The notes under the pieces were generated by a model. That model saw only the letters and a list, made by a program, of their open reading frames with translations. It did no database searches and was not told where the DNA came from. Both the position numbers and the translations under genes were made by a program. DNA of 11,183 nucleotides, counting the filler, from an uncultured virus (IMG/VR IMGVR_UViG_2061766007_004248) (Duplodnaviria; Heunggongvirae; Uroviricota; Caudoviricetes). It is 3 parts of one record of this genome, joined end to end, with 100 filler letters (N's around TTAATTAATTAA, not from the genome) between each part and the next. Parts side by side here need not be neighbours in the genome. Positions count along the whole stretch, not along the records: positions 4,701 to 11,183 come from IMGVR_UViG_2061766007_004248; 2 more parts are not named here. One strand, given 5' to 3'. Position 1 is the first letter of the stretch. Every line of letters begins with the position of its first letter. Of the stretch, positions 1,247 to 11,183 are shown piece after piece.

Positions 1247-1417
1247 CATTTCATGCTTGCCCCTCACCTGTATTTTCCGCAGTTTCTCGATGATGGGGAA
1301 TGCAGAGGAACGGGAGAGCTGTCACCGGGCATGAAAACTGAAATAGCATACGCAGAGGAGCACCGGATCCCGATCCGGTATTTCCCTGCAGAACAGGAGG
1401 ATCATTTTGATGACTGA
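1247..1417 (+). pseudogene. 3' part of a DUF4406-like phage gene, apparently frameshifted and internally deleted
   Basis: Reads HFMLAPHLYFPQFLDDGECRGTGELSPGMKTEIAYAEEHRIPIRYFPAEQEDHFDD*. 'APHL.FPQFLDD' and 'S.GM..EI..A.....IPIRYF' match, from memory, the small gene usually found just upstream of phage VapE. The stop (1415-1417) overlaps the VapE start. Allelic duplicates lie at 1073-1126 and 1137-1236. Confidence 0.65.
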
Positions 1418-3858
1418 ATTCAAGGTGGCTTTCGGTGAAAACCGGCAGGCTAAGAAATGGAAGAACGGCACGATCACGTTGGAAGAGCTCCGGAAGCGGT
1501 TGAGCACCACCTTCCGCACATCAGAGACACAGGCGGAGTACCAGAAGATGAAGAGTGCCGGGCGCAGCTCGGTAAAGGACAAAGGTGGGTTCGTCGGCGG
1601 CGTGCTGAAGGACGGCGTCCGCAGCGCGGTAACCGTGGTTGTTCGCTCTTTACTCACACTGGATGTGGATAACGCCAGCCTCACATTCCTGGACGAATAT
1701 ATGGCGCTTTGCCCTTACGAAACTCTTATCTACACCACCCACGGCCACATGCCGTCGGCCCCCCGCTACCGCCTTGTCATCCCTCTGACGAGGGACATAA
1801 GCCCTGAAGAATACAACGCGATCACCCGCTTCTTTGCCGCAGAACAAGGAATCGAGATGTTCGATACCTGCTCCTTTACTCCTTCTCAGCTGATGTTCTG
1901 GCCCACGACTTCGTCGGACGGTGAATACATCTTCCGGGAGGTGGAGGGCGCTCCCATGGACCCCGACGCTTTTCTGGCGCGTTACCCTTCCTGGAAAGAT
2001 CCCCTGAGCTTGCCCACCTCCTCTAAAGAGGCTCCCGCTCATGAAGGCAAGGGGAAGGTGGAAGACCCGCTTACTAAAGAAGGCATCGTTGGCACCTTCT
2101 GCCGTGCCGTAGGCACGATCCAGAACGCGATAGACCTGTATCTCTCCGACGTGTATGAAAAGGTAAGGGATGACCGCTACCATTTGATCGGGTCTTCAAG
2201 TGGTCCGGGTGTGCAGATCTACAACGACCGGCTTGCATACTCGAACCACGCGACGGACCTGGCTGCCCGTCAGACATGTAACGCTTTCGACCTGATCCGG
2301 CTGCATAAGTTCCCGGATGAAGATCCAAAGAAAAGCTTTTCCGCGATGTCAGAGTGGGCGGCATCTCTGCCGGAAGTGTCGCGCCTGCTCCTGGAGGAGA
2401 AGCAGAAGGAAGCGACAGCCGCCTTCGACGCGGATGATGAAGACTGGCAGGACAGGTTGATCCGGGATAAACACGGGAACCTGATCAACAGCCTGCACAA
2501 TCTTGGTCTCATCATGACCTACGACCCTTATATGCGCAACATCGTCTTCAACCAGCTGGCAGACGGGATGGAGATCAAGGGAGAAGTCCCCTGGTCCCAT
2601 GATGGGAAGAAGTTCTGGCGGGACCAGGACGATGCGCAGCTGATCTGGTATGTGGATCAGAATTACGGGTCCTTCTCCCAGCGAAATTACGATATCGCCG
2701 TCACGAAATGTGTGGATGATCGTTCTTATCACCCCATTAAGGAATACCTGGAAACACTGCCGGAGTGGGACGGGATCCCGAGGGTAGACACTCTTCTGAT
2801 TGATTATCTGGGAGCCGCGGATACGCCGTATGTTCGTGCCGTCACCCGTAAGGAACTCTGTTCGGCCGTTACCCGTGTCTACCACCCCGGCACGAAGTTC
2901 GATACACTCCTGGTCCTTATNNNNNNNNNNCCTTGGCGCGGAGGATAATTCGTATGTTCGTGCCGTCACCCGTAAGGAACTCTGTGCGGCTGTCACCCGT
3001 GTCTACCACCCCGGCACGAAGTTCGATACACTCCTGGTCCTTATCGGGGAACAGGGAATAGGTAAAAGCACCCTGATCGCCCGTCTTGCAATGGACTGGT
3101 TTTCGGATTCGCTGACCCTCTCTGATATCAACGACGGTAAGGCCGGTGCGGAAAAGCTCCAGGGCATCTGGATCATGGAGATTGGAGAGATGGCGGGGAT
3201 GAGGAAGGCGGAGCAGGAGAAGCTGAAAGCTTTCTTCGGGAGACAGGATGATAAATATAGGGCAGCGTTCGGAAGAAGAGTACAAAGCCACCCCCGTCAG
3301 TCGGTGATGTTTGGAACAACCAATGCGGAATCAGGTTTTCTTCGAGACATTACCGGAAATAGAAGATACTGGCCGGTGACTGTTCTTGGAACAGGAACAA
3401 GAAAACCGTGGGAACTGACACAGGACGACGTTAACCAAATCTGGGCAGAAGTACTTGTTCTTGTTTCCAAGGGTGAACCGCTGACGCTCCCCGCCGATCT
3501 TGAGGAACAGGCAAAGGCGGAACAAGCTGCTGCGATGGAAAAAGATGAACGCGAAGGGGTTGTTCGCTTGTTCCTGGAGACGTTGCTACCCGCCAACTGG
3601 GACCAGATGGATCTCTTCTCGCGCCGGGAATATCTCCGGGGAGACGACCTGACCCGGCGTGAGGGGACCGTAAAGCGGAGCGCTGTCTCCAACATAGAGA
3701 TCTGGTGCGAGTGCTTTGGGAGGAACCGGGAAGACCTGAAACCGGCGGAGAGTTATGCTCTTTCCAGCCTCATGTCCCGCATTGAGGGCTGGTCGCGTCC
3801 GAAGACGCTGCAGACGCAAGCGTTGTACGGGAAGCAGCGAGTGTATCTGAGAGAGTAA
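1410..3858 (+). CDS. VapE (virulence-associated E) family phage primase-helicase
   Basis: AGGAGG at 1395-1400, ATG at 1410. The N-terminal primase-like part has KDKGGFVGG, LTLDVD and YTTHGH..PRYRLVIPL. The C-terminal part has Walker A GEQGIGKST, Walker B WIMEIGEM, FGTTN, GNRRYWPV and the terminal YGKQRVY. The two ORFs 1407-2948 and 2800-3858 are one gene broken by a 10-N gap with about 110 bp duplicated on either side. Confidence 0.92.
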
Positions 3859-4321: not shown

Positions 4322-4600
4322 ATGATAAGGGAAAGGGATGTAGAAGCCTCTCTCATACGGGAGATAAGGAAACAGGGCGGGCTCTGCCTGAAATTTGTGA
4401 GTCCCGGGTGGAGCGGGGCACCGGACCGGATCTGTCTTTGGAAGGGCGGGCGCATGGCCTTCGCCGAGGTGAAGAGACCGGGAGCGAAGCAGCGTCTCCT
4501 GCAGACCCGCAGGGCGGAGCAGCTGAGAAGCCTCGGTTTTACCGTGGCTATTATCGACAGCCCGGAGGAGGCAGAGCGGTTCGCAAAGTCTGGAGGCGGT
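4322..4600 (+). CDS. VRR-NUC domain nuclease (phage), 3' end lost in linker
   Basis: GGAGG upstream; MIRERDVEASLIREIRKQGGLCLKFVSPGWSGAPDRICLWKGGRMAFAEVKRPG...Q......LRSLGF carries the PD...EVK (PD-(D/E)XK) motif typical of VRR-NUC. Partial allelic duplicates of the 5' end start at 4165 and 4229. Confidence 0.9.
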
Positions 4601-4700
4601 NNNNNNNNNNNNNNNNNNNNNNNNNNNNNNNNNNNNNNNNNNNNTTAATTAATTAANNNNNNNNNNNNNNNNNNNNNNNNNNNNNNNNNNNNNNNNNNNN
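4601..4700. other. Artificial contig-joining linker
   Basis: 44 N + TTAATTAATTAA (4645-4656) + 44 N. Confidence 0.95.
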
Positions 4701-4786: not shown

Positions 4787-5569
4787 ATGTTTGAAAAAGT
4801 GAATCCATCCCACCCTGATAAGGTCGCCGATCGCATCGCCGGCGCGCTGGTGGACATGGCGTACCGTAAAACGACACAACCGCGTATTGCTGTTGAGGTT
4901 CTCATCGGCCATGGCGTGTGCCACATTATTTGTGAGACTTCGGTCAGGCTGCCGGAGAAGGAAGTGTACCGGACAGTACGGCGTATTGCCGGTGACGTGT
5001 ATGTGGATCTCAGGCAGCTTCCGCAGGATGAACAGCTCGCCCAGAACCAGTCGCATGGTCTGCGCTGCGGCGACAACGGCATCTTCCGGGGTATGCCCGT
5101 GACCCGCGAGCAGAAGAGGCTCTCACGGATAGCGAGGCGGATTTACGAGCAGTTTCCATATGACGGAAAGTACATACTCGACGGTGACCGGCTGATCATC
5201 TGCCAGAGCAATACCAGATCAAGGGACCTGCAACGCATGTTCCCCTCGGCTGAGATCAATCCCTTGGGCGACTGGACAGGCGGCACTGACGTGGACACCG
5301 GCGCGGTCAACCGCAAGCTCGGCAGCGACATGGGCGATTCCATTACCGGCGGAGGCCTGCACGGCAAGGACCTGAGCAAGGCTGACGTGAGCGTGAACAT
5401 CTACGCATGGCTCAAGGCGCAGCTGATCCAGGAGCCCGTCGAGATATCCTGCGCGATAGGGGACGATCACGTTGACGGGCTGCCGTACGCTGTCATAGTC
5501 GACGTGGCCCGGAGATACATTAACGCCGTCGGCGGATTTGAGAGATTCGCCGAGTGGGGACTGATATGA
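4787..5569 (+). CDS. metK: Compact S-adenosylmethionine synthetase (MetK)-like protein, prophage type
   Basis: Diverged MetK motifs appear in order: HPDKVADRI (canonical GHPDKxxDQI), CGDNG (GAGDQG), GGTDVDTGAVNRK (GGPxGDxGLTGRK), GGGLHGKDLSKADVS (GGGAFSGKDPSKVDRS). Strong RBS; 260 aa; no gaps. Confidence 0.85.
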   Translation: MFEKVNPSHPDKVADRIAGALVDMAYRKTTQPRIAVEVLIGHGVCHIICETSVRLPEKEVYRTVRRIAGDVYVDLRQLPQDEQLAQNQSHGLRCGDNGIFRGMPVTREQKRLSRIARRIYEQFPYDGKYILDGDRLIICQSNTRSRDLQRMFPSAEINPLGDWTGGTDVDTGAVNRKLGSDMGDSITGGGLHGKDLSKADVSVNIYAWLKAQLIQEPVEISCAIGDDHVDGLPYAVIVDVARRYINAVGGFERFAEWGLI

Positions 5570-5632: not shown

Positions 5633-5860
5633 CTATGCAACATCATCGAAGTAAAGGATGGTTTGCTCTTCCATACGCGATTTTGCGTCTTCGATGATCT
5701 TTTCAATTTTCTTGACCACATCGCCGGTATAAAGGATCTCATCACACTCCTCGCATTTATAGCAGGGAATATCGCGAATGACCAGCAGGCCAAACCCAAG
5801 TTCGATTGCTTCGGATGTTAAACTCTTATATACTGGTTTCCCGCATTTCATGCATCTCAT
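5633..5860 (-). CDS. YgiT-type zinc finger protein (MqsA N-terminal-like), putative antitoxin
   Basis: MRCMKCG...LLVIRDIPCYKCEECDEILY has two CxxC pairs with the YgiT 'I.DIP...C..C.E..Y' pattern. The true start is ATG at 5860 with AAAGGAG upstream and an ATGA overlap with the upstream stop; 75 aa. Confidence 0.85.
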   Translation of the reverse strand: MRCMKCGKPVYKSLTSEAIELGFGLLVIRDIPCYKCEECDEILYTGDVVKKIEKIIEDAKSRMEEQTILYFDDVA

Positions 5861-6174
5861 ATTGTTTGCTCCTTTCGTGTTTTCATGTCTGATTCCCATT
5901 TGTCCGGATCAGGGGCATAGGCTGTTACAACATATATCTTGTCAGACTCGATGCTGAGCACGGCGTGCAGGGCACGTTCTCCTGAATATCCAAGAACCAG
6001 GCAACTTGGAGACGGAAAGGCATCCGGATATTGTTCGATGATACTGCCTGTCTTGATCGTAAATATAATATCATCGATACCAATACCGCGTTCGGCAAAC
6101 CTTTTCCTGCTGTGCTGGGTCATTATCAATGACTCAGCCTTATTCAATAATTGGAATTGCTCGATAGAGTACAT
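5857..6174 (-). CDS. DUF4258 domain protein, putative toxin
   Basis: TQHSRKRFAERGI..DDI...I..G.IIEQYPDAFPSPSCLVLG.....LHAV.......YVVTAYAPDPDKWESDMKTRK fits the DUF4258 pattern; GAGGAG RBS; translationally coupled to the YgiT gene. Confidence 0.85.
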   Translation of the reverse strand: MYSIEQFQLLNKAESLIMTQHSRKRFAERGIGIDDIIFTIKTGSIIEQYPDAFPSPSCLVLGYSGERALHAVLSIESDKIYVVTAYAPDPDKWESDMKTRKEQTI

Positions 6175-6203
6175 TGTTTTCTCCTCACGACTTCACAATA
6201 CAG

Positions 6204-6232
6204 ATTTTACCACATTTCGAAAAAAGAATCAA
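6204..6232 (-). promoter_or_regulatory. Sigma70/SigA promoter for the DUF4258-YgiT operon
   Basis: Minus strand TTGATT (6232-6227), 17 bp spacer, TAAAAT (6209-6204), with TGTG just upstream of the -10. Confidence 0.75.
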
Positions 6233-6524
6233 TTATCCTGTTGGTTAAATTGACTTCCTTGGCCAACTGAACAGAGCTATCCGTTATTTATCTTGACTTT
6301 CATTCCGAGCTGACGGATATATGTAGCGATCATTTGGAAGCCTGCAAATAAAAAGTCANNNNNNNNNNNNNNNNNNNNNNNNNNNNNNNNNNNNNNNNNN
6401 NNNNNNNNNNNNNNNNNNNNNNNNNNNNNNNNNNNNNNNNNNNNNNNNNNNNNNNNNNNNNNNNNNNNNNNNNNNNNNNNNNNNNNNNNNNNNNNNNNNN
6501 NNNNNNNNNNNNNNNNNNNNNNNN

Positions 6525-7906
6525 CTCAGACAGGGACTGTTCCCAGAGGCCTTTCTCTTTGAGACAGTCACGAACCTTTCCGTAGTAGATGCGCAAGAAC
6601 TTGGTCATGCCGGCAGTCATGTACACATAGTACTGTTTGCCCTCGGAGCGTTTCTTGTCAAGGAACTGGTAAACCGGGTCATCGGCGGGCTGTAGCTGCA
6701 GCAGGATCGTCATAATGATAAAAAGCGTTTTGCGAAGGTATGGAGNNNNNNNNNNAGCAAAGCCAACAAGCGACTTCTGATGTACAAAACGGCGAAGGTC
6801 ACCAATCTCGGCCATCAGCTGCGGTCCCATGGACTTGCCTACGCCGGTCATGGCCATGACAGTCTCGTATTCCGGAAGCTGAGAGGCCAGNNNNNNNNNN
6901 AGCCACGTTTGCTGCTGGGCTTGCTGTCGGAAACCTTGTCGCCGGAATCATCCTTGACCGGATCAGTGCCAGCAAAGCCTACCAGAGACTTCTGGTGCGC
7001 AAAGCGGTGAAGGTCGCCGATCTCTGCCATCAGCTGCGGTCCCATGGACTTGCCCACACCGGTCATAGCCATGACTGTCTCGTACTCCGGAAGCTGAGAA
7101 GCAAGGCGGTCCATCTCGGCACGGTAGATTTCCACCGTGCGTGAAACGGCATTGAGCTGAGCAACCGCTTCTCTGACCAGGAGCCTGCAGGTGTCGGACT
7201 TGAGCACCAGCGGGAACTTCTGCCGGGCATCCTCGTGAATCTCGTCAGCCTTAGCTTCTGAGAAGTTATAGCCGTGGCGCTTGCACCACTTCTGGTACCG
7301 CTCCACAAAGGCCTTCCGGCTGACCTTGGCCACGCAGTCCACATGCCAGAAGGTGCCCACAAAGTCCACCCATTTCTGACTGCCATCCGGCCGCACCGGG
7401 CTGTCAAAGTACCTGTTCGCGCCTGGATAGCTCTGCTCCAACAGAGCAATGAGATTGTTGTTCAGCGCGGTCTTGGTCTTGGAAGACAGCTGGAACTGTC
7501 GGTGAAGGGTCTTGAGGTCGTAACGAATCGTATCCATGGGAGTATAGTGCGGCAGGATCTCCCATTTGTCAATGGCAAACTGAGCGATCTTCAGAGCATC
7601 TGCCTTGTCGGTCTTCACCTTGCGGACGCTGATCCCCTCCTGGTAATCCTTGATGGCCAGCGGGTTCACGGCGGACACGAAGAAGCCTGCCCGGTACATG
7701 CTCATGGCGAAGGATTCGTAGTACCGCCCGGTATGCTCCATGACGATCCTGACCTCACCATCCAAAGTACGCAGTCTTGCCGCCAATTCGGCAAAGCCAT
7801 CGGCGGTGTGCTGAACCTCGTAAGGTCTCACAGCCACCATTCTTCTGGCACCGAGTACGGCAACCGTGCTCCTGCCGTTTGAAACATCGACCCCTACTGC
7901 GAACAT
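6525..7906 (-). CDS. IS110-family transposase/recombinase (DEDD RuvC-like + Tnp20 domain); stop codon lies in the N gap
   Basis: VGVDVS (D), MEHTG (E), KTDKADA (DD); C-terminal GVG...LMAEIGD..RF......GFAG.DP...DSG...SKRG.PYLRKTLF with the conserved serine motif; GGAGG RBS at 7918-7914. Interrupted by 10-N gaps with an extra allelic copy at 6756-6890. Confidence 0.95.
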
Positions 7907-7919
7907 GCTGAATCCTCCC

Positions 7920-8163
7920 GATGTGTTACTACAATGGCTTACCGCCTTTACCCATCGCCGATTCTATCTGTTCGCTGACCCGAGTGACCCTGACGGGCGC
8001 TCTACCTGCACAAATCGAACGCTGTACAACGGGAAGGCCGACTGGCTGACTCAGGTACGAGCGTGATGCTCTTGGAGGCATTCGTCAGGCCATTGCCCTC
8101 CCATTGTACAGCTTAGGCAATGAGATGTCCCTCGCCTGTGGCTGGCTGCCACGAACATGGGGC
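7920..8163 (-). ncRNA. Predicted IS110 bridge RNA (5' stem-loop, target-binding loop, donor-binding loop)
   Basis: 5' hairpin 8158-8125. An 18-bp stem (8112-8095 with 8038-8021) closes an internal loop GAAUGCCUCCAA / GUACCUGA around a GAGC-GCUC hairpin. A second stem CGAUUU/GAAUCG (8017-8012 / 7964-7959) encloses UGCAGG and AACAG, which match the element junction. Boundaries are approximate and folding was done by eye. Confidence 0.8.
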
Positions 8164-8192
8164 AAACATATAGTAACAGGGAGGCGGAACGA

Positions 8193-9039
8193 ATGCATGA
8201 TTACTTTGGGGGAACAACCGGCCAGCGGATTGAAGACCTGATCCGGGAAAACCGGATTTCACAGGCAGTATTGGCCAAGGCCGTCAATGTTTCCAAAGCA
8301 ACCATGAGCCGTTATATTCAGGATAAATGCGAAATCCCTTCCGACACTCTCCGCGCAATTGCCGGGTACCTTGATGTCACTCCGGATTTTCTCCTTGGTG
8401 TGACAGATATCCCGTTTAAGACGAACCATGATATCGACCGGCTTGGCCTGACAGCTGAGGCTGCAAGGAGAATGCTCGCCGGTCAGCTGGATATGCGCGT
8501 TCTGAACATATTGATTGAGAACGATGACTTCGCGGTCCTGACAAAACAGATTGCGCAGTACGTCGATGCAGCCCAGCGCGAAAGCCTGTCGGTGATGAAT
8601 GCNNNNNNNNNNGACTGCCGGAAAACTCGTGACCCGGCATTCTGAAACACATCCGCAGGATAAGGAAAACGCCCTCAGGGCGTATCATGATATCCGCGGC
8701 AGCATGGTCACCCCGTCTTTACCGGACACAGCTGCCATGGAGTCAACCTGGTCCAGAATCCTGGATGAACTCCGCAAAGGCGCAGAAGACCGGATTCGGA
8801 AAAACGTGAAACTGACAACGGATATCATGGAGAAGATCATGGCCGGTCTGGAAGAACGCAAAACCAAAACCGATCTGCACAGCACAACCGTCCGCGATAT
8901 CACGCACGCAATCACCGATGTTATCACAGCCGCCGGTTTCCCTGAGAATGAGAAAGAAGCATTGGAGAAGAGCTTGCGAGAGTTGTTTGACCGATTTGTG
9001 AAAACGAGGGGAGAAAACCCTAATATCATACCAAAGTGA
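8193..9039 (+). CDS. XRE-family helix-turn-helix transcriptional regulator with long helical C-terminus
   Basis: GGAGG at 8180-8184 then ATG 8193; GQRIEDLIRENRISQAVLAKAVNVSKATMSRYIQD...IAGYLDVTPDFLLG is a classic XRE HTH. ORFs 8157-8645 and 8599-9039 probably join across the 10-N gap at 8603-8612. Confidence 0.85.
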
Positions 9040-10365: not shown

Positions 10366-11183
10366 AGAAACTGGTTTGCCTGCTGCTGGCGGCCGTGCTG
10401 TGCATGGCTTGGACACTGACCCTGGCTGAGGAGACTGCACCCCGTGACCTGGAGGCCGAGAAGGCCGCCTTCCTGGAGACCCTGCAGGCTGAAGGCCGCG
10501 CAGAGGTCGGCGTCTGGAAGGTCGAACGGATCCGCGACAATGTGTATCACATGGATGAGGACACCGTCGGCAACCCCGGCGGCTCCATCTCCCCCGAGGG
10601 CGTCTTCAACAATCCGTCCTCCATCTACTTCATCGTGGAAGAGGGCGAGGTCCTGATCGTGGACCTCGGCAATCCGACCTTCGGCGAAGGCGAGACCGAC
10701 GCGAAGGTCATCATGGAGGCCATGACCGCCGGCAAGNNNNNNNNNNNNNNNNNNNNNNNNNNNNACCGGCCTGGGCCGCAGCACGGCGGTCTTCGAGAAT
10801 ATCGACGTGCAGAAGGTCCTGATCGGCGCGCCCGACCTTGAGACCGCCATGGACGCCATCGGCCAGTTCGAGGGCAAGATCGAGGCCCTCGAGGACGGCC
10901 AGACCTTCACCTGGGCCGGCACGGAACTCACCGCCTACATCGTGGCCGCCCACACCCCCGGCTCGCTGNNNNNNNNNNNNNNNNNNNNNNNNNNNNNNNN
11001 NNNNNNNNNNNCCTGCTGATCACCGGCGACACCTTCGGCAGCGGCGCCGTGTGGGTGTTCTGGCCCAGTCCCGACGGGAACCCGCTGCAGATCCTCCGGG
11101 ACGGCACCTCCCGCGCACGCGACATCCTCAACAACATGACCGATGTCCGCATCCTGGCCGGCCACCGCTGCCAGCAGTTCTGG
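10366..11183 (+). CDS. Secreted metallo-beta-lactamase-fold hydrolase (partial, gapped), probably a host gene
   Basis: Signal-peptide-like KLVCLLLAAVLCMAWTLTLA; MBL motifs in order VLIVDLG, [HxHxDH position falls in the N gap], AHTPGS, LLITGDTFG, ILAGH. Markedly higher GC and GC3 than the upstream genes. Confidence 0.8.

Follow-up and report, generated by a model that had tools for sequence, protein, structure and literature searches.

The closest described relatives of the element studied here are IS621 and the other IS110-group bridge recombinases, which combine a recombinase of DEDD and Tnp domains with a bridge RNA, encoded in the left end (LE) of the element, that carries a target loop and a donor loop (PMC11208160; structure 8wt6). 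In the accessible text of PMC11208160, the left target guide (LTG) of this RNA equals the top-strand left flank plus the core dinucleotide, which is CT, the right target guide (RTG) is the reverse complement of the core plus the right flank, and a junction promoter is rebuilt across the joint of the excised IS110 circle. Here we analyse a stretch of 11,183 nucleotides (the window) taken from a record of an uncultured virus (IMG/VR IMGVR_UViG_2061766007_004248), in which positions 6341 to 8177 contain an IS110-group insertion sequence, predicted to move by bridge-RNA-guided recombination. Using a comparison of about 130 related loci, we find it likely that this element and its relatives home to Shine-Dalgarno (SD) sites, antisense to the gene, and that the window merges the junctions of two copies.

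Elements of the IS110 and IS1111 type are known to aim at repeats: ISPpu9 and ISPpu10 at REP (repetitive extragenic palindromic) sequences, IS4321 and IS5075 at Tn21 inverted repeats, and the seekRNA elements (accessible text of PMC11187229). Like these, the element described here is RNA-guided and aimed at a short, abundant, non-coding word; unlike the targets in REP and Tn21 repeats, its word is a translation signal, present before most genes of any host and in a fixed orientation to the gene. For this choice of target there is a mycobacterial precedent. The insertion motif of IS900, an IS110-family element of Mycobacterium avium subsp. paratuberculosis, is CATGNNNNNNTCTCCTT (accessible text of PMC8141618), the reverse complement of an SD plus ATG, and here too SD and start codon are found in one orientation. 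The references of that paper include Doran et al. 1997, whose title has IS900 targeting translation initiation signals. What is new is that bridge-RNA guides spell the ribosome-binding signal, and do so in two registers. A search of main texts in the full-text literature found no paper linking IS110 elements or bridge RNA with Shine-Dalgarno, anti-SD, ribosome-binding-site or translation-initiation targeting, and none tying the IS900 motif to a bridge RNA guide; the single paper in which such terms occur together speaks of Shine-Dalgarno in a different connection. The words ribosome and IS900 have 0 occurrences each in the accessible text of PMC11208160, whose Supplementary Data 2 might list SD-like motifs, and the accessible text of the seekRNA paper (PMC11187229) makes no mention of ribosome-binding-site targeting.

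Several features set the present element apart from IS621. Sequence similarity is low (E 6e-12 over two stretches); the left guide in the window's subgroup covers only the C of the core, with an A facing the core T; the right guide comprises about five letters plus the core, compared with two plus the core in IS621; a class of sites read in a +1 register exists; and the conserved guide letters spell a Shine-Dalgarno target. An initial annotation, made on the window alone, had proposed that the left guide is an anti-SD sequence, that the element sits exactly at a ribosome-binding site and that it may be programmed to home to such sites. That observation is partly confirmed, and its main inference holds at the level of the family.

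Target guides in a conserved bridge RNA fold

The features on which the argument turns are the following (positions count along the window; in sequences below, a slash marks an edge of the core).

6341 to 8177, minus strand: the IS110-group element as assembled, with ends placed where similarity to homologues stops.
6339 to 6340: core dinucleotide of the right-end (RE) junction, AG on the plus strand and CT in element orientation.
8178 to 8179: core dinucleotide of the LE junction, AG on the plus strand and CT in element orientation.
8074 to 8082, minus strand (read 8082-8074): left target guide AAUGCCUCC, containing the anti-Shine-Dalgarno-like CCUCC, placed by covariation with the left target.
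8059 to 8071, minus strand: inner hairpin of the target-binding loop, GAGC-AUCAC-GCUC (pairs 108-111/124-127).
8050 to 8057, minus strand (read 8057-8050): right target guide UACCUG plus the core-facing AG, placed by covariation with the right target in 32 unique pairs.

The DNA similarity of about 20 homologous elements to the window ends at 8179-8186, which puts the LE end at 8177. In element orientation the left end starts CT/GTTACTATAT and the right end closes TTGACTTTTTATTTGCAGG/CT. Both junctions of the window copy have the CT core, as do those of nearly all loci for which both ends are available (one locus, L020, has CA at both), in agreement with the IS110-group pattern of a conserved core with neither further duplication nor terminal inverted repeats.

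The roughly 270-nt left end (271 nt) is predicted to encode the bridge RNA. A 262-nt transcript of it folds with a minimum free energy of -104.3 kcal/mol (z -3.2) and contains an internal loop closed by CUGAC/GUCAG around a small inner hairpin. RNAalifold on 22 diverse relatives returns the same architecture with 49 predicted pairs, 25 of them with compensatory changes; in the inner hairpin, both sides of a pair are changed in 9, 6 and 2 sequences. Both target guides lie within an internal loop of this conserved fold. A search of 6200-8400 against Rfam gave 0 matches at E up to 1, the presence of a bridge RNA model in Rfam 15 being unchecked.

We placed the target guides by the rule of PMC11208160 and compared them with the flanks of the homologues. 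The nine letters ahead of the inner hairpin follow the left flank (9/9 in L003, L015 and L017; 8/9 in L009, L014 and L018), and the six letters plus AG after it follow the right flank (6/6 in L002 and 5/6 in twelve others). Over 50 unique pairs the left guide matches its flank at a mean of 2.72 of 5 variable positions, against 1.60 +/- 0.15 in 2000 shuffles (maximum 2.26). The right guide matches at a mean of 3.97 of 6 over its 32 unique pairs, against 2.61 +/- 0.17 when shuffled (maximum 3.25). Even the core is mirrored, as the CA of L020 is met by a guide ending in UG. This guide/flank covariation bears out the guide positions of the initial annotation, including GCCUCC with its CCUCC core at 8079-8074 within the left guide, and GUACCUGAG as the segment that spans the right one.

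Next to the core, 34/47 left guides end in CUCC and 21/32 right guides in GAA. The usual register, in which the last guide C pairs with the core C and the target reads AG/GAGG, accounts for 34/47 homologous sites. Sites in the +1 register form a minority of 11/47, plus 2 ties, with a clear case in L107 at 8/9. An Oscillospiraceae metagenome-assembled genome carries a copy of the window's subgroup (L067) whose left guide GGUAGCGGC fits its flank TGGTAGCGG/CT over 10 letters, and which reads as a clean example of retargeting away from the SD.

Sites of the family lie at gene starts

Homologous loci came from two scans. A protein-based scan of one genome per species gave 74 loci at 45-94% identity, mostly in Oscillospiraceae and other Clostridia of gut and rumen, and an exact-pattern scan of metagenome contigs added 59 further loci; 78 sources hold a left end of the window's subgroup. 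Requiring at least 60 nt of flank and collapsing duplicates by the last 25 flank letters gives 57 unique left-flank sites in that subgroup. The counts leave out L129_1, a second match 21 nt from the first, and L077, L082 and L099, with misaligned or truncated loops. (In the locus L129, minus strand, the left end starts twice within about 2029-2072, at a distance of 21 nt, a sign of a possible short tandem duplication of the LE tip.)

At 32/57 of these sites an ATG followed by at least 40 open codons stands 4-20 nt past the core, and at 34/57 if any start codon is allowed. The same arrangement is found at 923/7763 (11.9%) of random AG dinucleotides in the same flanks (p 1e-15), and at 99/524 (18.9%) of those AG that are followed by GAG, GGA or GAA (p 4e-10). 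Distances to the start codon peak 10-14 nt after the core. An SD 4-mer (GGAG, GAGG or AGGA in the core plus six letters) is present at 42/57 sites, compared with 1095/8907 (12.3%) random AG. Written in the sense opposite to the element, the site logo reads G15 A22 A25 of 31, then AG, then G51 A33 G37 G34 of 56, for a consensus of GAA-AG-GAGG. In one genome (G001) the three LE junctions that were found read AG/GGGAGGAGCAC, AG/GAGGATGTCAATCATG and AG/GAGTAACAGACGATG. The letters that the guides read do not include the start codon, so its enrichment is separate evidence for genuine gene starts at these sites.

The initial annotation had expected a pattern of this type around the insertions of close homologues, and their flank logo (AG/GAGG) and start distances (an ATG peak 10-14 nt past the core) bear it out, as does the antisense orientation of the family's sites. 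Copies that share the end of the window's guide, AUGCCUCC, are present at two other unique sites (L103/L131 and L111), and both sites have GGAGG or GAGG followed by ATG.

Sister subgroup and third subgroup

In a sister subgroup at 45-57% protein identity, the left end opens with CT/CCTACAAT and the right end closes GCAGGA/CT. Its right guide fits the flank at 5-6 of 6 letters in 12/16 pairs scored, and its site logo is AAGG-AG-GT. An ATG with an open frame follows at 13/19 unique sites against 56/424 (13.2%) by chance (p 5e-8), with L032 and L035 (contig edge or odd core) left out. The core is here the second, inner AG within GGAGG, and the CC with which the LE of the element starts gives the junction its GG back; in the window's subgroup, the core by itself preserves the SD. 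The 3' tail of Firmicute 16S ribosomal RNA (rRNA) reads ..GAUCACCUCCUUUCU, and the logos of both subgroups are then pieces of its full complement. IS900, for comparison, inserts between SD and ATG, whereas the cut here falls at the 5' edge of the SD in the window's subgroup or inside it in the sister subgroup.

A third subgroup (L021-L023, at 55-56% identity, in a Lachnospiraceae genome and in [Clostridium] asparagiforme) has guides ..GGAAAUG-CU and AAAUU-AG and sits at GGAAAT(G/A)/CT/AATT, sites that match these guides, hold no SD and are not ribosome-binding sites. Targeting of the SD is therefore a property of the first two subgroups and not of all relatives.

What can be said against homing should be set beside these counts. 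No start codon with a long open frame is found at 23/57 sites of the window's subgroup and 4/19 of the sister subgroup, and some of these failing sites are plain non-genic or intragenic GAGG-like sites. One guide, UAUUCCUCC, is found at several different sites with only 4-8 of 9 letters matched, which indicates loose targeting. The guides hold CCUCC by descent, so that an SD-like flank partly follows from the guide itself, and only the enrichment of start codons, outside the guided letters, is independent of it.

Such observations invite the reading that ribosome-binding sites are hit only incidentally: a pyrimidine-rich CUCC beside the core would be a requirement of the recombinase or of the RNA fold, and most CCTCC/GGAGG words in these genomes happen to be ribosome-binding sites. 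The CUCC does adjoin the invariant core and is common to the 34/47 guides counted above, which could reflect descent or a structural constraint; the loose targeting, with the same guide at several sites, fits too, as does the fact that 18.9% of random AG followed by GAG, GGA or GAA already have an ATG and an open frame. The observed 56% is well above that figure, however. Moreover, otherwise normal elements carry guides without CUCC (L067 with GUAGCGGC, L002 with UACUAAUC, L116 and L006) and match non-SD flanks, the sister subgroup arrives at the same signal through other guide letters and in a register of its own, and the third subgroup has matching guides with no SD at all. We therefore regard such a by-product of other constraints as unlikely and retain homing to the SD as our reading of the family.

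The window copy probably carries flanks of two copies

The flanks of the window copy are these.

6331 to 6340, plus strand: left flank CATTTGGAAG, the upstream half of a different ribosome-binding-site target, which in run X6 continues GAGGAAATTCAAATG...
8180 to 8195, plus strand: GGAGG (8180-8184), an 8-nt spacer and the ATG (8193) of an XRE-family gene.

At the LE junction the element ends at 8177 and is followed by AG at 8178-8179, GGAGG at 8180-8184 and the XRE ATG at 8193; the open reading frame (ORF) that follows on the plus strand matches HTH_26/HTH_3 in Pfam. The claim that the element sits exactly at a ribosome-binding site thus stands for this junction, which abuts both GGAGG and ATG, with the qualification that the window copy fits only in the +1 register (AG/GGAGG), the minority class also present in homologues. 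In the usual register its left guide AAUGCCUCC predicts AATGCCTC/CT, the actual flank is CCGCCTCC/CT, and 3/9 letters agree; in the +1 register there are six contiguous matches (GCCTCC; 6/9). The right guide UACCUG-AG predicts CAGGTA, and the assembled left flank is TCCAAA, a fit of 1/6. The window copy is in these respects atypical, and neither an uninterrupted XRE site nor read-level proof of the LE-XRE joint was obtained.

We aligned Logan contigs of four runs (X1, X3, X6 and X10) over 5900-8602. In X6, which comes from an independent study, a contig of 329 nt matches 6173-6340 apart from 5 differences and then runs on for 161 other letters starting GAGGAAATTCAAATGCCG; it is an uninterrupted AAG/GAGG...ATG site before a different gene, departing from the window exactly from the core. 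The first 19 letters of this continuation do not occur in the window even with 2 mismatches allowed. In X1, which may be the source sample, and in X10 there is a variant copy of the element that differs from the window at 8052-8056 and 8079, with right guide UUUGGA-AG and left guide AAUUCCUCC. Its right guide predicts TCCAAA, which is the window's left flank in 6/6 letters, and its left guide predicts AATTCCTC, which fits the X6 continuation at 7/8. In X1, three contigs depart from the left end at 8181 into other flanks. The RE junction (6340) and the LE junction (8178) of the window thus most likely belong to two copies, either merged in scaffolding across a multi-copy element or joined by recombination between copies.

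A two-copy origin would account for the poor fit of the right guide, from which the initial annotation had argued that specificity rests mostly on the SD; the covariation of the right guide with its flank across the family (3.97 against 2.61 of 6) points away from that argument. It also bears on the empty site that the annotation had rebuilt on the plus strand by removing the element, which is probably a merge of two copies: the joined sequence ...TTTGGA-AG-GGAGGCGG... was found nowhere searched. Of the proposal that insertion leaves the ribosome-binding site intact, the part that concerns the LE junction survives; the RE junction most likely belongs to another copy's site.

The rival view, to which we assign a low probability, follows the initial annotation and takes the window copy as a single true insertion into an empty site ...TTTGGA-AG-GGAGGCGGAACGAATG, picked almost only by the CCUCC of the left guide, with the right guide of next to no importance, in a half-match or off-target event. 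Word depth in X1 is similar for the left flank and the guide alleles of the window copy, at 18.6 for the former and about 18.9 left for the window's allele (8052-8056, 8079), half-match insertions have been reported for IS621 (accessible part of 10.64898/2026.08.31.748434), and separate transfer of the two junctions has been reported for CazIS110-1 (accessible part of a second preprint). What speaks against a single insertion is that the left flank fits the right guide of another copy in the same sample in all six letters, that in X6 it runs exactly from the core into the GAGG...ATG of a different gene, that three N runs and a duplicated piece interrupt the element, and that a right-guide fit this poor is seen in only 2/32 homologous pairs, the other being a contig with shuffled flanks. 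By analogy, the window copy may alternatively record a CazIS110-1-like transfer, junction by junction, or a half-match event. Homing, for its part, does not depend on whether the window shows one copy or two, because both half-sites are ribosome-binding sites.

Searches for the element or its site in other collections were largely negative. Nothing resembling the left flank is present in phage records; among viral contigs, neither the left flank nor the LE end is matched exactly and the XRE gene has no relative; plasmid records yielded only two distant recombinase matches; and in 401 genomes of the order of G001 the XRE relatives share no more than 40% identity, a distance too great for an empty site to be shown. 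No listed contig joins 6340 to 8180, and X3, X6 and X10 are without cover over 8266-8602, a lack that proves nothing. The contig joints listed within the element, whose sides are short at 20-47 letters, resemble cross-matches between copies.

Among metagenome loci, one left flank may be seen with up to three right flanks, and the reverse (L075, L086, L089, L091, L092, L095, L113, L125, L126 and L133); such shuffled flanks reflect either chimeric assembly across copies or true rearrangement among them. The window itself consists of several contigs joined by TTAATTAATTAA linkers (785-796, 4645-4656), and its 10-N gaps (e.g. 1063-1072, 2921-2930, 6746-6755 and 6891-6900) lie between near-identical sequence and look like strain bubbles placed end to end. 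Given these linkers and bubble-like gaps, long-range linkage in the window is unreliable.

A proposed mechanism for targeting the ribosome-binding site

We propose that the left guide, which ends in ..CCUCC, would pair with the gene-sense DNA at a ribosome-binding site in a manner similar to that of 16S rRNA on messenger RNA (mRNA), CCUCC being the documented core of the 16S anti-SD (accessible text of PMC10783764). The right guide, usually ..GAA-AG, would pair with the opposite strand just upstream, and the invariant CT core (AG in gene sense) would be the first AG of AGGAGG. The element would then always integrate antisense to the gene, entering where the SD begins on its 5' side, and AGGAGG and the start codon would remain intact beside the left end of the element. 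The five variable 5' letters of the left guide would read the spacer between SD and start, so that each lineage could be biased to particular genes. The geometry alone suggests, as the initial annotation had supposed, that genes would be uncoupled from their promoters, and target genes may be silenced by this loss.

Carried further, the proposal would be that two sister subgroups of IS110 elements in gut Clostridia evolved target loops that imitate the 3' tail of 16S rRNA (GAA-AG-GAGG and AAGG-AG-GT), perhaps under selection for the SD as a target. For them the SD would be a landing pad that does not depend on the host, the left guide would tune the choice of gene by reading the spacer with its variable half, and the signal would be kept or rebuilt, making the element a natural, retargetable device that separates a gene from its promoter and leaves the gene undamaged, and supplying the mechanism behind the 1997 observation on IS900. 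We judge the chances of this extended account to be about even. A bolder extension is that the exposed CCUCC loop might conceivably also bind ribosome-binding sites of mRNA in trans.

A different possible role for the CCUCC concerns the recombinase itself, whose own ribosome-binding site lies within the same transcript.

7913 to 7919, minus strand: ribosome-binding site GGGAGGA of the recombinase, with GGAGG at 7914-7918.

The initial annotation was right about this GGAGG and had speculated that the guide pairs with it in cis, coupling guide occupancy to translation. As an isolated duplex the two regions are stable (-12.9 kcal/mol), and most members of the window's subgroup conserve the two motifs. 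When a 276-nt transcript is folded as an ensemble (partition function), however, the summed pair probability between them is 0.0: the guide is predicted to be mostly unpaired in its loop (0.47-0.97), G7919 and GA 7913-7914 pair locally, and the four central letters of the ribosome-binding site are predicted unpaired. Elements whose guide lacks CUCC (L067, L002) keep the same ribosome-binding site, and any anti-SD-like word can pair with any SD. Pairing in cis accordingly seems to us very improbable, and the role that we favour for the CCUCC remains the reading of target sites in DNA.

Bridge recombinases are under development as genome-writing tools, and the natural aims of their guides show what selection has favoured. 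A guide set aimed at ribosome-binding sites would offer thousands of sites per genome in any host, in fixed orientation to the gene and with the signal preserved. If true, homing of this kind is a likely mechanism for IS900-type elements at translation starts, and the guides of the window would favour sites like (TACCTG)AG/GAGGCATT. The data also suggest rules of tolerance, namely the +1 register and the use of one guide at several sites, that bear on the prediction of off-targets. A caution concerns method: flanks of multi-copy IS110 elements on metagenome scaffolds may come from different copies, which makes rebuilt empty sites unsafe.

Recombinase, donor guides and surroundings

The recombinase is encoded on the minus strand with its start at 7906.

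6902 to 7906, minus strand: recombinase ORF, residues 1-335 (DEDD RuvC-like domain and the start of the Tnp domain).
6745 to 6525, minus strand: the C-terminal part of the recombinase resumes.

It belongs to the IS110 family, matching DEDD_Tnp_IS110 (PF01548; E 1e-24, residues 4-161) and Transposase_20 (PF02371; E 5e-13) in Pfam, and its C-terminal end is broken by N runs. Its alignment with the IS621 transposase 8wt6 (chain 8wt6_A; E 6e-12) keeps four motifs in register, namely GxDxs, E, DxxD and SG: GvDvs, mEhtG and KtDkaDa align with IS621, and ddSGd, with the conserved serine, aligns with yeSGs. We take the aligned DEDD columns to be the catalytic residues. N runs interrupt the element at 6359-6524, 6746-6755 and 6891-6900, and a piece of 135 nt occurs in two allelic versions, 6756-6890 repeating about 6935-7070. 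Opposite the recombinase, at 7274-7882 on the plus strand, lies a 202-aa ORF reminiscent of the hed ORF of IS900. The complementary-strand hed depends on host signals (accessible text of PMC8141618); IS900 hed runs on signals captured from the host, whereas here the host SD and ATG stay with the host gene.

The remaining features of the two ends are these.

8138 to 8152, minus strand: 5' hairpin of the bridge RNA, GUGGCAGCCAGCCAC.
8003 to 8010, minus strand: left donor guide UGCAGGUA, the same sequence as the RE end TGCAGG.
7924 to 7931, minus strand: right donor guide UAGUAACA, complementary to the core T plus the LE start GTTACTA, by direct reading.
6341 to 6358, minus strand: visible RE end (T)TGACTTTTTATTTGCAGG, with the left donor sequence GCAGG and the putative -35 of a promoter at the circle junction.
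8170 to 8175, minus strand: TACTAT, the putative -10 of a promoter that the excised circle would rebuild, read directly from the sequence.

The left donor guide UGCAGG follows the RE variants GTAAG, GCAAG and GTAGG in L018, L020, L024, L026 and L028, with L016 as an exception. Across the RE-CT-LE joint a candidate promoter TTGACT, 17 bp, TACTAT is legible as a sequence match; the first T of TTGACT is hidden by N in the window and was taken from homologues. A further promoter-like site at 8146-8174 on the plus strand (CTGCCA, 17 bp, TATAGT; 9/12 matches) faces outward to the target gene. As a driver of the XRE gene it would start transcription inside the GGAGG, and its letters are conserved for other reasons (the opposite-strand -10 and the 5' hairpin), so we give it no weight. 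Within the left end, an ATG at 8157 shares the reading frame of the XRE gene (ORF 8157 to 8645) and could give a 12-codon N-terminal extension; no SD is seen ahead of it.

Around the element, 1407-3858, 4787-5569 and 5633-6174 look like a phage or mobile island. Pfam returned nothing for the ORF pieces at 4322-4600, 10395-10736 and 11012-11182. The island-like regions include a VapE-like primase/helicase gene in two allele pieces and a protein in which S-adenosylmethionine synthetase is represented by its N-terminal domain alone. They also contain a DUF4258 protein that, together with a small minus-strand partner ORF, looks like a toxin-antitoxin pair.

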